63,889 bases of DNA, filler included, from an uncultured Methanosarcinales archaeon (GCA_964405295.1; 7 parts of 7 records of this genome joined end to end with filler, not necessarily neighbours in it), one strand, 5' to 3'. Shown: positions 3,885 through 63,889, counted from the first letter of the whole stretch. Made by a program: numbers and translations. Notes: a model not told the origin generated them from the letters alone.

Positions 3885-3960
3885 TTATAAGTATATAAGA
3901 CTAAATCACTATAGAAACATTAATAAATAAAACTTCTAAACCTCATTATAGGTGTTTTAG

Positions 3961-5727
3961 ATGAGCGCAGAGAGATCGTTAGCAGATTACCAGGAAGAAG
4001 TTGCAGAAGAAGAGATAGTTCTAGAAAAAGAAAAGCTCAAAAATCAACCAGATTCTCAAAAATCAAAAATTGCTGTCGCATCACAAGAAACTAAAGCAGA
4101 TATTCTCGCACGGAAACAGAGAGATATCGGTGTTGCAGAGTTTTTCTCAAGAAATAGACACTTATTAGGATTTGACAATAAGAGAAAAGCATTAATGACA
4201 ACTATAAAAGAAGCTGTTGATAATGCCCTAGATGCTTGTGAAGAAGCGGAAGTTCTACCAGAAATCTTTGTTGAAATAGTTGACATGGGTAATGACCGAT
4301 TTAGAATAACTGTAGAAGATAATGGGCCAGGAATTGTTAAAGCTCAAATCCCAAAAATCTTTGCAAAATTATTATATGGAAGCAAATTTCATTCTTTAAA
4401 ACAATCGCGAGGTCAGCAGGGTATTGGTATCAGTGCTGCAGTTATGTATGGTCAACTTACAACTGGTAGACCTGCAAGAATTATTTCTAAAATAGGAAAG
4501 GATAAACCTGCACACTATATTGAACTTAAGTTAGATACCCAAAAGAATAAACCTGAAATCTTAAAATATGAAGAAAAAACTTGGTCAAAAGATCATGGAA
4601 CAAAAATAACAATTGATTTAGAAGCTTCATATCAAAAAGGAGGACAAAGTATTGATGCATATCTTAAAGAAACTGCAATTGCAAATCCTCATGTTACTAT
4701 TGTCTATGTTAATCCAAAAGCAGAACAGCACATTTTTCCTAGAGCAATGAATAAATTGCCTAAAGAAGCTAAAGAAATAAAACCTCATCCTTATGGAATT
4801 GAATTAGGAGTTCTTATTAAGATGCTTAAAACAACTACAACAAAAACTTTGCAACAATTTTTCACAACAGAGTTTTCAAGAGTTACATCAAAAGTTGTAA
4901 AAGAAATCTGCGAACATGCAAAAATTGAACCTAAGAAAAAACCAAAATTAATTTCAAGAGAAAATGCAGAAAAACTAGTTAAAGCAATTTCTGAAGTAAA
5001 AATAATGAATCCTCCAACAGATTGCATAAGCCCAATTGGAGAAGCAGAACTAGAAAAAGGTCTTCGTAAAGAAGTGAATGCAGAGTTTTATGCTGCAACA
5101 TCAAGACCTCCATCTGTTTATAGAGGAAACCCTTTTCAAATAGAAATCGCACTTGCCTATGGTGGAAATCAACCAGGTGATAAACAGATTTCTCTAATGA
5201 GGTATGCAAATAAAGTTCCACTTTTATTTCAACAAGGTGCTTGTGGTTTCACAAAAGCAGTTGTCCAGACTTCATGGAGAAATTATGGACTAAATCAATC
5301 TCAAAAATCGATTCCTGTTGGGCCAATGACTTTGGTTTTACACATTGCATCTGTATGGGTTCCATTTACATCTGAAAGCAAAGAAGCACTTGCACAATAT
5401 CCTGAAATATTAAAAGAAATTAAATTAGCGATTCAAGAAGTTGGTCGAAAATTAGCCCGTTATACTTCTAAAAAGAAGAGAGTTAAAGATGAATTTCAAA
5501 AAAGAAATTATATAGAAAAATATATTCCACACTTAGCAGGTGCGATTAAAGAGTTAATTGATATCTCTGATGAGCAAGAAGCTCAACTTGAAACAGAATT
5601 AAAAGGTTTATTAGAACAGGAAAGAGGCAAAATAGCTAAAATGGTTTTTGATGAAAAAGCTAACACAGACTTTGATGAAAAACTTGCAAAGAAGTTTGAT
5701 GATGATGAAGGGAGTGATGAGCAATGA
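3961..5727 (+). CDS. top6B: DNA topoisomerase VI subunit B
   Basis: GHKL motifs EAVDNALDA, EDNGPGI, SRGQQGIG; IKPHPYG; WVPFTSESKE. Confidence 0.97.
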   Translation: MSAERSLADYQEEVAEEEIVLEKEKLKNQPDSQKSKIAVASQETKADILARKQRDIGVAEFFSRNRHLLGFDNKRKALMTTIKEAVDNALDACEEAEVLPEIFVEIVDMGNDRFRITVEDNGPGIVKAQIPKIFAKLLYGSKFHSLKQSRGQQGIGISAAVMYGQLTTGRPARIISKIGKDKPAHYIELKLDTQKNKPEILKYEEKTWSKDHGTKITIDLEASYQKGGQSIDAYLKETAIANPHVTIVYVNPKAEQHIFPRAMNKLPKEAKEIKPHPYGIELGVLIKMLKTTTTKTLQQFFTTEFSRVTSKVVKEICEHAKIEPKKKPKLISRENAEKLVKAISEVKIMNPPTDCISPIGEAELEKGLRKEVNAEFYAATSRPPSVYRGNPFQIEIALAYGGNQPGDKQISLMRYANKVPLLFQQGACGFTKAVVQTSWRNYGLNQSQKSIPVGPMTLVLHIASVWVPFTSESKEALAQYPEILKEIKLAIQEVGRKLARYTSKKKRVKDEFQKRNYIEKYIPHLAGAIKELIDISDEQEAQLETELKGLLEQERGKIAKMVFDEKANTDFDEKLAKKFDDDEGSDEQ

Positions 5728-60303: not shown

Positions 60304-63298
60304 GGATATTTTTAATCAATCTAATAAACTTAGCTTTATCTTCTGCTCTTAGTTTAGATTCTTCTAGTTTATTAATTATATCAGTTTGAACTTGTCTAGC
60401 TTCTTTTTTAGTTTTAATTTCACCTTCTTTAATTCCTTGAATATGTCTTGTAAATGTTTCTCTAAATCCTTTAAGTTCTGCTTTTCTAATTGCTTTTTCT
60501 TTTCTTAGTTCTAATATATTTTTTTGCCTAGCAAGTCTTTGTTCACCTTTTCTTTTTTCTTTAATAACAGGAACTTTTTTAGCTATTTTCCTAGTTATAT
60601 CTTTTTCAATACCTTTAACAAATCTTTTCTTTTCAGCAATAGCTTTTTTAGTCTCTTTTTTTACTTCTACTTTAGCAACTTCTTTTACAACTTTCTTAGT
60701 AGGTTTATTAGCTTCTTTATATATTTGTTCTAGTTGGGATATTGTTTCTTTTTGAACCTTTAATTCATTAAGTCTTTCTTTATTAGATTTAACTAATTGT
60801 TTATAAAAATTATCCTTTTCGGCTTTTTCTATAACATCTTTAACAACATTTTCTTGATTTTTAATTTTAAAATCAATGAGTTCAATATTACTTTTTGGTT
60901 TAGATATAATTTTTACATCATTTTCACTAAAGTATGAACTGGTATCCCTTGCCGTTCCTTCTCTTAGACTTTTTAAATGTTCTCCAAAACCAAGCCTTTT
61001 GGCATTATTTATATTTTTAGCAGGAACATTATATTGTTTTCCTCCAATTTCAACTGTAAACTCTTTGGACTGTTTGGACTGTCTAAAATCTATTTGTTTC
61101 TCAACAAACTCCTCTACACTCTTAGCATTCTTAGCTTGTTCTGATAAAGATGTATCAGTTGTTTCTTTATTAGCATCTTTATATATTTGTTCTAGTTGGG
61201 GTTTGGTTTTGACTATATTGGCATTGACAATGGCTGATTCTGGTACAAGACCTTGAGGGTCAACTCCATATTCTACAACATCATATCCTTTAGATTTAGC
61301 ATATTTTGCGATTTCTATCCCATCACCATTGTCTTTTGGTATAGCAAATCCATCTTCCATATTATAAAGTTCTTTTGGTGTATTATTAAATGTGAGAACT
61401 TTAGCTTCAGGATTTATATAAAGTTCCTCTATTTTTACTTTAGAATTTAAATACCCTTCAGCTACGCTTTTTTTAGGAGAAACAAATAAGCCATCATCAG
61501 TTAATAATTTTACATCAAAACTTTTATCAGTTGCTCTATAAACTAATTTATTACTCTTAATAAACTCCTCTACACTCTTAGCATTCTTAGCTTGTTCTAA
61601 TAGAGAGGTATCAGATACCACTTTTGTTGGTTTAACCTCGCTAACAGCCTCCTGTGGCTTCTGAGGGGGTGTTATTTCAACTTTCTTTATTTCTTCTTGT
61701 CTTAATTCATCTAATTCTTTATTTATATTATCAAGATTAGTTTGTATATTTTTTCTTACATTTTTATTGGTAGTTTTTCTTAATTGTGTCATTAAAGATT
61801 TATAAGTTCCTATAAGTTGTTTTTCTTGTGGAGTATAAGGAACTGTATCTGATTTAGATACATCTTTTATAGATAAACCAACATTACCTTCACTAACTTT
61901 TTGTAATCCTTTAGCTACAACAGTTCCACCACCACCCATAATTCCAAGAGTAATAATCTCATCTATAAGTCTATCAGTTCCTTCTTTAGTTATAAATGGA
62001 GCATAGTATTTTCTTTCTTCTATAGGAGCTTGTCCTAGTTCAGTTATTTCCTCTTCTAATACCTCAGAAACCATAGAATCAAATTTAACCTTATCCAATA
62101 TATCTATAAATGCTTTAGGAGTTCCTTTAACATTCTTGATATTCATATATCTATTTACAAATCCTAATTTAACAGAATCAAAAATTTCATCTAATGAACC
62201 ACCTAGATATTCAACTCCACCTTCTATCATCCTACTAATAGAAGTTCTTATTATATCTTCTGCTAGACTATTTTTATTTTCAGGATTTTTATGATAAGCC
62301 TGTAAAAATTCAGGTTGTAATTGCTTACTATCCTGTATTGTTTTATTTAAAACATCTGCTCCAAGTTGAGGAACATTTGTCATAGAAGCTAAAGCACCAC
62401 CAGTTAGTCTTGCTCCTAATCTTGCTAAAAATGGAGTAGCTTTAGTCATAGCTCCTAATTTAGAAGTAATACCAGTAACACCAGCACCAACAGATAATTC
62501 AGTCATAAACTTTAAAGAACCTGCTAGAGATTTAACTACTCTATCAGTTCTACCCTTATCTACTTGAAAGTTTTTAGCTCTTATCTTTTCTAGTTCTGCT
62601 TTCTCTTGTCTTGATAATTCTTCTCCTCTTTCTAATTTACCTTTAATCTTATTAGCTTCAACAGCACTCATTACATTAAATACAGTTCCTAAGAACGGCA
62701 TATATTCTTCAGCAGTTAAACCTAAATCATCGAATGCTATATCTAAAGATCTAAGAAAAGTAGGTTTATTTCTTAATACTTCTAAATTATTTTCATATAA
62801 CTGTCTAGCTTTTATCAAGTCATTTCTTCTTTGAACATCTTTTATCTTTAAATCTCCACTTAATACTCCTTTTAAATCGCTACCAACTGTTCCACTTATA
62901 TCTTCATCTCTCAACATCAAATCAATATTAGATATAGCTCCTTTGACTCCTTGAATTAAATTTCTTTTTTCATCAAGTTCTTTAGTAGATTTAATTTTAA
63001 TTTCAGGAAATGTTGGTTTAGTTGTTTTTACATCTAACCTATCTAAAAAAGTAGTTGGTTTTTTAACACTAACTTTAGTAGTATCTATTGGTTTTACTAC
63101 ATTTAAACTAGGTATTTTAATAGGTTGTCCTTGATATTGAGGTCTATCTTTAACTACTATCTTTGACATACTTATAGGACTAACAACTCTAACTTGTGGT
63201 TTAGGTTGAGTATTAAAATAACTTTGTTGTGGTTGGTTAAATGGTTGGTTAATAGTAGGAGTTTTTAACCTCTTTAATCTATCTAAAAGTAATGACAT
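60304..63298 (-). CDS. Large polyvalent / internal virion (ejection-type) protein, 3' partial, with ART-like domain
   Basis: >990 aa; G/A-rich helices with EGGVE and EVLEEEITE; ART-like LVYRA..GLFVS..VAEGY...GYDVV..E..V; internal repeats. Confidence 0.7.
60704..61614 (-). repeat. Two pairs of direct repeats bracketing two unrelated domains
   Basis: 37-bp identical 61562-61598/61106-61142; 35-bp with 1 mismatch 61166-61200/60704-60738. Confidence 0.95.
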
Positions 63299-63311
63299 AA
63301 TTTTTTATATT

Positions 63312-63889
63312 TTAATAATTTCCTAAAGTTGTTTTTATTTGTTTGTCAGTATAGTTTTGAAGTCTTAATTTCTCTACTTGTTTCATAATATCAGCCAAAT
63401 CATCTTCATCTAACACATTACTACTAGTAGTCTTTAAAAACTCAGCATCAATAAAATTTCCTAGAATTTCTTCTTCTGGAGCATTGTATTGAGTAGATGT
63501 TTGTCCTGACATTATACTTCTCAATGTTTTAACTTTTTTATCCCAATTAGGTATAGCTTCTACACTATTTGGATCAAAATATCCTTTTCCAGTATCATCT
63601 ACTTGAGGTTTAAGCATTTCTATAACAGCTTCTAATCCGTCAGTAGCAATTATTTCTCCCATAGCATCTATTTCAGCAACAGTGAATCCAGCTGATAATA
63701 GTCTATTCTTTGTTGCTTGACTACTAAATATTTTAGAACCCTCTGTTGGAGTTGCTTTAGGAGCGGTAGGTTTATAAGCAGGTCCAGCATTCTTTCTATA
63801 TAGCTCTTCTCCAGTTTCTTTATCAATAGCAACTTTATATTTAATACCACCTACAATTTCATCATATACATATTCAGTAGTAGTATCTT
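63312..63889 (-). CDS. Hypothetical phage protein, 5' partial (possibly internal virion)
   Basis: Frame stays open from the window end through the annotated 63312-63662 ORF. Confidence 0.7.
   Translation of the reverse strand, partial: DTTTEYVYDEIVGGIKYKVAIDKETGEELYRKNAGPAYKPTAPKATPTEGSKIFSSQATKNRLLSAGFTVAEIDAMGEIIATDGLEAVIEMLKPQVDDTGKGYFDPNSVEAIPNWDKKVKTLRSIMSGQTSTQYNAPEEEILGNFIDAEFLKTTSSNVLDEDDLADIMKQVEKLRLQNYTDKQIKTTLGNY

Follow-up and report, generated by a model that had tools for sequence, protein, structure and literature searches.

Two tandem units, each made of a left border, an interior domain (hereafter the cargo) and a right border, lie in frame within a large phage gene on contig C58 (3,586 base pairs (bp); window positions 60304-63889) of a bin from an uncultured Methanosarcinales archaeon (GCA_964405295.1; 98 contigs, 1.27 Mb), the window being the whole stretch of DNA that was analysed, 63,889 nucleotides (nt) in which several contigs stand end to end. 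Comparison with metagenomic relatives indicates that related phages very probably replace the cargo at these borders, and that such swapping is defined by the borders themselves. What is new here, as judged from these comparisons, is a pair of codon-fixed borders of mirror-image strand composition that carry an inverted AGTT, together with swapping that appears widespread.

Replacement of cargo between conserved borders

Between the relatives L066 and L225, identity is 100% across 3,220 nt on the upstream side and across the 60-63 nt available downstream; it ends right after a left GAG-TTT and returns just before the right core, and the cargos in between are unrelated (a 149-residue ADP-ribosyltransferase (ART)-like domain against one of 90 amino acids (aa) judged ParB-like by eye). 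L207 has the flanks of L016 and L040 (100% over 300 nt on each side, 99.9% over 1,897 nt downstream) together with the cargo of L199 (100% in both 60-nt windows tested, 99.3% at the protein level), a sequence whose own flanks are 27-35% identical, and among five relatives of the L207 gene one cargo occurs in four and the other in one. The number of units varies too: L129 and L131 match at 99.3% along the 2,996 nt that lead to the end of a right border, and beyond it a second unit starts only in L129, and P0013, P0055 and L273 bear different arrays on backbones that are 92-96% identical. The cassette exchange with variable cargo and variable unit number that a first-pass annotation of the window had proposed is thus borne out in these relatives, which do not keep the same two interiors. 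L318 is homologous to the host protein of L066 (50% identity); it has no border in the 1,140 residues seen and instead contains what appear by eye to be zincin-like and methyltransferase-like domains.

In the window the left borders share 37 fully identical bp (61562-61598 versus 61106-61142; 55 of 60 over a wider copy) and the right borders 34 of 35 (61166-61200 versus 60704-60738), as had been described beforehand, and no further copy of either border occurs in the 98 contigs of the bin. The interiors were rightly called unrelated: comparison of 113 with 119 aa gave no similarity (best E = 6.1) and the predicted folds differ, so that diverged paralogy was rejected. The window's lineage (L125, L129, L131 and L132) has host proteins 22-36% alike and differing cargos, and across it the junction of right border, linker and left border is 84-98% identical in DNA (95% in L125 and L129); the window's own junction recurs in three other contigs at 84-95%. 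In the window, L125, L129 and L131, where the host genes are otherwise unalignable in DNA, the first left border is preceded by 60-100 nt of 77-87% identity; slots seem to travel from one host gene to another whole, linker included. A depth peak lies at 61615-61720, upstream of that border. L125 (minus strand, cargo at about 200-450) has an in-frame TAA in its ART-like cargo, either a sequence error or the mark of an inactivated cargo, beyond which the frame continues to the right border and a second unit.

Cargo 1 had been read as an ART fold, and its structure model (predicted local distance difference test (pLDDT) 92) agrees. Compared with the ART-fold proteins AcrIF11, RES and ParT (PDB 6kyf, 9r35 and 6d0h), it matched 6kyf with Z 8.2 (root-mean-square deviation 3.1, 102 residues aligned), RES with Z 7.7 and ParT with Z 6.6, at 6-14% identity; ART-fold proteins fill the 11 top VIA rows, aligned to residues 21-142, exactly the cargo, 33 viral matches in BFVD reach E <= 0.001, many of them named ART-PolyVal, and the best Foldseek E against PDB is 0.002. 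AcrIF11 is described as a phage ADP-ribosyltransferase, and the fold that it, RES and ParT have in common with cargo 1 reveals no substrate. The ART-PolyVal (PF18760) score, 14.1 bits, lies below the cut-off of 31.2, and the H-Y-D triad described for the ART-PolyVal active site (PMC5512222) is absent: cargo 1 has an Arg in strand 1, where ART-PolyVal has His, a Ser region in strand 2 and a late Glu, a catalytic triad that was assigned by eye and is kept in P0002-P0006. Going by the model, cargo 1 is therefore an ART-fold domain but not a member of the ART-PolyVal family proper, with a predicted NAD-dependent activity. Homologues occur in five proteins at 72-76% identity, on backbones with no alignable stretch and between borders of a commoner form, and in P0001 one occurs without borders. 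Cargo 2, earlier called unrecognised, remains so: no homologue of any length class, no Pfam or PHROG family and no Atlas match was found, and its low-confidence model (a beta hairpin with long helices) gave fold matches to generic helices only. An Atlas search with a minimal unit returned unnamed viral clusters of low recognition.

Units of this kind form a large family. A degenerate pattern of the commoner left-border form matched at least 124 IMG/VR stretches and a right-border pattern 99; in genome bins the left pattern matched 48 stretches, many labelled Patescibacteria or DPANN, labels to be read in the light of unreliable binning of viral contigs. Six metagenome matches were dropped, namely L126, L128, L130, L133 and L134 (5 of 10; an unrelated cellular protein) and L127 (no border match). 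The matches listed contain 173 left-cargo-right units that differ from one another, of which 161 have a strong right border; cargos in this DNA set measure 31-244 aa (median 133). A left border lies upstream of 154 of 180 strong right borders, and for 19 of the other 26 the frame exits the fetched DNA; no empty slot, with left joined directly to right border, was seen among cargos the shortest of which has 31 aa. A profile of 45 diverse units, run against 1.84 billion clusters at 50% identity, matched 2,267 of them at E <= 0.001 and 879 at 1e-10, counts to be read with the cargo columns that the profile contains; the best 150 of the 2,267 were examined, in a ranking that favours multi-unit proteins. 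The pooled proteins hold at least 407 distinct cargos in 97 single-linkage clusters (275 cargos in one ART-like cluster, 76 singletons), with one unit in 202 proteins, two in 94, three in 9 and none in 7. When 83 units were scanned, 29 matched ART-PolyVal at E <= 0.01 (17 above the cut-off), one GNAT and one, weakly, ParB, and further library scans added GNAT and ParB-like cargos. No library model of the border was found, the best Pfam, PHROG or NCBIfam family occurring in at most 5 of the 45 diverse units (PHROGs) or 1 of 45 (NCBIfam); tblastn of one unit and one junction against 50,697 cultured-phage records gave no match, nor did an IMG/VR search with both window units or with the exact window-border pattern.

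Several variants accompany these typical units. Those of L002, L011, L027 and L250, and also of L008, L081 and L121, are open only with read-through of TGA, at sites where relatives have Gly; phages of hosts with genetic code 25 have the same borders, so that the cargo pool may cross genetic codes. L251:9965-10486 (+) is a free-standing 174-aa open reading frame (ORF) that amounts to a single bordered ART-like unit; it belongs to a prophage-like region, where it follows an HNH-type nuclease gene and comes behind the large virion genes. L290:9600-11780 (+) is a phage gene fragment (right border, linker, full unit and C-terminal region) among ordinary cellular genes on an 89-kb contig of a Saccharibacteria-labelled bin. 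In eleven sequences (L015, L025, L047, L049, L052, L054, L069, L075, L254, L255 and L270) the cargos are short and for the most part helical and the right border is reduced to its outer half, which may be the form in which new domains first enter a slot. In L065 (about 3930-4900, +) two successive left borders are followed by a frame break into sequence that looks by eye like a DNA methyltransferase, and in L269 (about 4750-5100, +), a possible prophage remnant, the left border is truncated at once and followed by what appears by eye to be a tRNA gene on the other strand.

Features of contig C58, in window coordinates
Feature	Position	Strand	Remarks
Host gene, large phage protein	60304..63298	-	ORF start 63298, 998 codons, 3' end cut by contig end
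Unit 1	61166-61612	-	In frame within host ORF
Left border, unit 1 (DT + SLLEQAKNAKSVEEFI)	61559..61612	-	Two short helices predicted; DNA core G/T-rich, C-poor
AGTT of left border 1	61563..61566	-	Conserved tetranucleotide, inside exchange zone
Cargo 1	61208..61558	-	117 aa, predicted ADP-ribosyltransferase fold, Arg...Ser...Glu type
Right border, unit 1 (TKPQLEQIYKDA + NK)	61166..61207	-	Helix predicted; DNA core C/A-rich, G-poor; AACT at 61194-61197
Inter-unit linker, 7 codons	61151..61171	-	Commonest inter-unit length in the family
Unit 2	60704-61156	-	In frame within host ORF
Left border, unit 2 (DT + SLSEQAKNAKSVEEFV)	61103..61156	-	AGTT at 61107-61110
Cargo 2	60746..61102	-	119 aa, unrecognised
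Right border, unit 2 (TISQLEQIYKEA + NK)	60704..60745	-	AACT at 60732-60735
Upstream gene, 3' end	63312..63887	-	191 aa visible; weak PHROG match (E=0.0076); likely the preceding virion/ejection gene, from its position

Codon fixation in the borders and the place of exchange

The borders are constrained in their DNA as well as in their peptide. Codons were counted over 126 non-redundant units, found with search patterns that left third positions free. In the left core K10 is AAG in 108 of 116 cases (background 22%), S11 AGT in 93 of 98 (29%), E13 GAG in 106 of 111 (24%) and a further Glu GAG in 112 of 120 (backgrounds 22-29%); in the right core ACC stands in 70 of 93 (8%), TCC for S3 in 93 of 101 (6%), CAA for Q4 in 120 of 121 (75%) and GAC in 86 of 108 (27%). 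This fixation holds in phages of low G+C (GC) content too, and the adjacent E5 is GAG in 18 of 119; A6, A12 and left codons 1-4 vary at random in their third positions, next to codons that are 93-99% fixed. The bias is limited, abruptly, to left codons 7-17 (C 6% versus 14% in cargo) and right codons 0-8 (G 2% versus 21%), and the fixed codons are written in G and T only on the left and in C and A only on the right, so that a G/T-rich strand runs 5' to 3' into the cargo from each side. AGTT is present in 141 of 161 left borders and its reverse complement AACT in 151 of 161 right borders, the only significant inverted register (4-mer p=0.003; 6-mer p=0.037; from column shuffles that ignore codon structure). 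The cores are richer in GC (40% versus 29-31%) but less self-structured than synonymous recodings of them. Synonymous identity is 79% within the same gene and 63% between genes, against an expected 50%. The first-pass annotation had taken conservation at synonymous sites as a sign of recombination; this gains from the family-wide codon fixation, the stronger signal in the DNA, and loses for the two window copies, the identity of which appears mostly to reflect borders staying with their host gene.

At the protein level the borders follow a hydrophobic pattern (L2, A6, Y9 and F15 on the left; L5, I8, W/Y9 and A12 on the right) that persists where the right DNA core is lost, and the border helices, two on the left and one on the right, are modelled at pLDDT 85-98. 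The left border may resemble the capsid-targeting sequence of phage T4. That sequence is established as a concept (PMC9026906).

Several other identities for the borders were rejected. A Nif11-type leader (PF07862) scored 19 bits against a cut-off of 23.8, for the left border only, and Rfam gave a single chance snoRNA match outside the units (E=0.45). Inteins are known by their splicing residues, and none are seen in the border sequences. An RNA or single-stranded DNA stem between the borders has no compensatory (Watson-Crick) pairs and no common register, the cognate left-right duplex measuring -12.9 kcal/mol against -12.3 for composition shuffles and -12.6 for non-cognate pairs. A Shine-Dalgarno sequence with an internal start at the left border also fails: GGAGG occurs in 62 of 161, ATG at that codon in 1 of 161, and a nearby start in 3 of 71 non-start cases.

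Pairwise comparison places the exchange. In 80 same-protein pairs with unrelated cargos, left residues 1-15 and right residues 6-16 exceed random likeness (the excess mostly 0.2-0.65) and left residues from 16 onwards do not; in 26 same-cargo pairs with unrelated flanks, sharing is found for left residues from 17 onwards and right residues up to 1 but not for the outer border; and 17 same-gene pairs compared as DNA give the same picture. The recipient therefore keeps its borders and only the cargo moves. In these alignments exchange is restricted to a zone of about 12-15 nt along each inner edge, within the left codons E-F-V-K and the right codons T-K-S-Q-L. Five left borders of the window's lineage cease to match directly after the same GAG-TTT, and positions just inside the left border follow neither host nor cargo.

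Probable short-homology annealing and its rivals

We regard as rather probable a model in which the units are in-frame slots in a likely injected phage protein and single-strand annealing uses the fixed DNA cores as short stretches of homology. Where a cargo is broken or gapped, resection would leave the recipient with two 3' G/T-rich tails that anneal to the matching borders in a co-infecting phage and prime the copying of that phage's cargo; unequal border pairing would add or drop whole units. A border that drifted from the common sequence would lose access to the cargo pool, which would keep the codons fixed. In the predicted protein the three border helices would pack as a small clasp that joins the cargo ends, letting any domain of 30-250 residues loop out with the carrier unharmed, and the payload, delivered along with the DNA, would be a fast-changing set of host-modifying enzymes, NAD-using ones among them, probably directed against host defences. 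The agents of pairing would be general phage annealing proteins or host RecA rather than a dedicated recombinase; RecA has been described as having high affinity for TGG-type repeats (PMC5587095).

A survey of 50 unit-bearing genomes, 29 of them near-complete, bears on this choice. A tyrosine integrase (PF00589) was found in 3 of 50 (1 of the 29 near-complete), host chromosomes lying outside the search, and a serine recombinase and a reverse transcriptase in 0 of 50 each. With no integrase, serine recombinase or reverse transcriptase to call on, short-homology annealing is the likeliest route, and tail-primed gap repair or annealing is favoured because it predicts host-retained borders, exchange at the inner edge and mirror composition. 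A NinG-like HNH nuclease (PF05766) is present in 9 of 29 near-complete genomes and 8 of 13 partial (half-)genomes, and those 13 share no other candidate gene. Shufflon-type inversion was rejected, no opposite-strand border lying within 1.5 kb of any left border, as was a diversity-generating retroelement (DGR), given the tally for reverse transcriptase; no border copy that might be a DGR template was seen in the scanned portion, about 40%, of each of the 13 genomes.

A number of points weigh against this model. Recognisable annealing proteins are in a minority of the 50 genomes (ERF 8, RecT 3, Rad52 1; Sak4 outside the search), the exchange zones, 12-15 nt each, offer little length for ordinary homologous recombination, and a near-invariant inverted AGTT is also the expected mark of a site-specific enzyme. 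The units share ancestry, so that binomial p-values overstate significance, and the compared pairs are not independent. Left-right residue covariation barely reaches the shuffle ceiling (top z 6.3 versus 6.1), and the clasp is for that reason proposed from model confidence only. No recombination event was seen experimentally, the swaps being known from sequences.

A dedicated site-specific enzyme, either host-encoded or of an unrecognised family, that binds the inverted cores, cuts at or near AGTT and brings about an integron-like double-site exchange is a doubtful alternative. The inverted AGTT/AACT sits in both exchange zones and is the sole significant register, AGTT contains triplets that we take to be invariant in integron attC sites, and the shared point of divergence after GAG-TTT in the window's lineage would suit a fixed cut. 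Most genomes, however, have no phage tyrosine or serine recombinase and no shared gene except the NinG-like nuclease; no inverted cargo was found among 228 left borders examined, and there is neither a fixed hairpin, junctions not having been folded one by one, nor covariation. Moreover, the positions inside the left border that track neither side suggest a zone rather than one bond, and many units retain only the outer half of the right border. It is accordingly unlikely, in our estimate, that the borders are recognition sites of an undescribed system (a host enzyme, probably of Patescibacteria, or an unknown family) cutting at the inverted AGTT cores; if they were, they would constitute a domain-level integron, with sites that double as a folding clasp, across thousands of phages, and a community-wide plug-in library of injected anti-host enzymes.

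That the borders are conserved solely as a protein element (a clasp, or a packaging or processing signal), the codons being a founder effect and homologous recombination incidental, is improbable. The peptide pattern is strong and outlasts the right DNA core, and whole borders do move between host genes, the 95%-identical junctions lying in proteins about 30% alike; yet third positions are randomised right beside codons that are 93-99% fixed, the bias is mirrored between the strands, and the outer border is unlinked to the cargo, unlike the outcome of crossovers spread over the whole homology.

Assembly was checked with the unitigs and contigs of four public sequencing runs, in line with the read check that the first-pass annotation had called for. 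Either of the runs X1 and X2 may derive from the source sample. In run X2 the stretch from cargo 2 through the junction and cargo 1 to the first left border is tiled by error-free unitigs of similar depth (5.5-9), and no mis-assembly is indicated; no single record among the four runs spans both units, and the order of the window units is therefore graph-supported and unproven. In community DNA border depth is up to tens of times cargo depth (X3: 419 versus about 5), with alternative cargos attached at the inner border edges; the unitig graph also has several weak joints (for example 61720 to 60397). Assembly chimeras at shared border repeats, whether as the source of the swaps or of the window tandem, are a highly improbable explanation: unitigs end at borders in all four runs and L125, L129 and L132 each have a terminus at a border, but in both L207 borders there are private bases found in neither the donor of the flanks nor that of the cargo, which leaves no exact overlap for a chimera, the L066 left border is atypical and a chimera there would still need a close relative with another cargo, cargos in unalignable hosts are 70-92% identical (diverged, not copies), and an open reading frame connects the two borders in 144 of 147 pairs.

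The host protein and its place among known systems

No Pfam or PHROG family matched the whole host protein. Polyvalent proteins have been described as large late-gene proteins, proposed to be injected (Iyer et al. 2017, PMC5512222; also PMC9503650), whose domains include ART, GNAT, ParB-like, PBECR and LPD38, with ARTs the commonest enzyme (PMC5512222), and bordered hosts share this domain repertoire and multi-domain makeup: they carry ART, GNAT, zeta-toxin, PBECR5, LPD38 (in P0005 and P0098) and peptidoglycan-binding domains. The window protein, with an ART-fold cargo and an unrelated one, has the polyvalent trait of several unrelated domains; no MPTase or LPD domain occurs in the 998 residues present of this cut gene. 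Unit-bearing genomes in the set examined are phages of about 40 kb, and in three relatives the gene follows tail and virion genes, as the last of several large genes in a row; C58 itself holds two ORFs only. Because of this post-tail position and the LPD38, PBECR5, zeta-toxin and peptidoglycan-binding domains, the host protein is likely a polyvalent-type virion or ejection protein that is packed and injected. Its cargos would probably act against host defences.

Two other contigs of the window merit mention. C21 (51906-60203) is a separate phage contig with a portal-like gene (phrog_332), a scaffold-like ORF, a major head protein (phrog_267) and glycosyltransferases, and may derive from a different phage than C58. 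C20 (43164-51805) has a GC content of 49-52% against 30% in the large contigs of the bin; because it and many small contigs deviate, the bin looks contaminated.

Integron cassettes form arrays of unrelated cargo that gain and lose units and are marked by short inverted conserved triplets. The present units resemble them in all these respects, AGTT/AACT matching what we take to be those triplets, and differ in having no integrase and no hairpin site, in the recipient's retention of its borders, and in a cargo that is an in-frame domain, not a gene. Closer are the PeSL cassettes and internal-protein loci of T4-type phages, viewed in terms of Botstein's linker model (Arbiol et al. 2010, PMC2839356), where short conserved repeats act as homology handles for the exchange, loss and gain of genes, including those of injected defensive proteins, with no dedicated recombinase; those repeats, as described there, are intergenic promoters and terminators that move whole genes, whereas here two different in-frame coding borders, a peptide pair of mirror-image strand composition, move single domains. 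The T-even adhesin gp38 (Trojet et al. 2011, PMC3157838) likewise undergoes in-frame exchange in or near conserved motifs of one gene, but what it is described as swapping are short homologous receptor loops between glycine-rich motifs of one fold, in contrast to whole unrelated domains of 31-244 aa traded among unalignable host proteins. By the tests made, the system would thus work like linker-mediated shuffling inside a polyvalent protein, and not as an integron or a DGR. In the parts of the literature covered (subscription papers and supplements lying outside), the border peptides were not found and the borders not described; PMC5512222 raises cassette recombination as a possibility for kinase loci, and its text as covered, supplementary alignments aside, describes no border motif, exchange site or DNA-level signal.

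How polyvalent proteins gain and trade domains has been a question since their description, and exchange sites are now defined to about a dozen bases, with natural recombinants caught. The border pair is a search key that delimits, with exact ends, hundreds of small domains apparently selected for delivery into the host, and the resulting cargo list is one of candidate anti-defence and host-takeover proteins, probably including those of phages of Patescibacteria, which to our knowledge are almost unstudied. Dual coding of such a kind, in which one sequence is under constraint both for its peptide and for its DNA, the latter a strand-mirrored handle, would be unusual.

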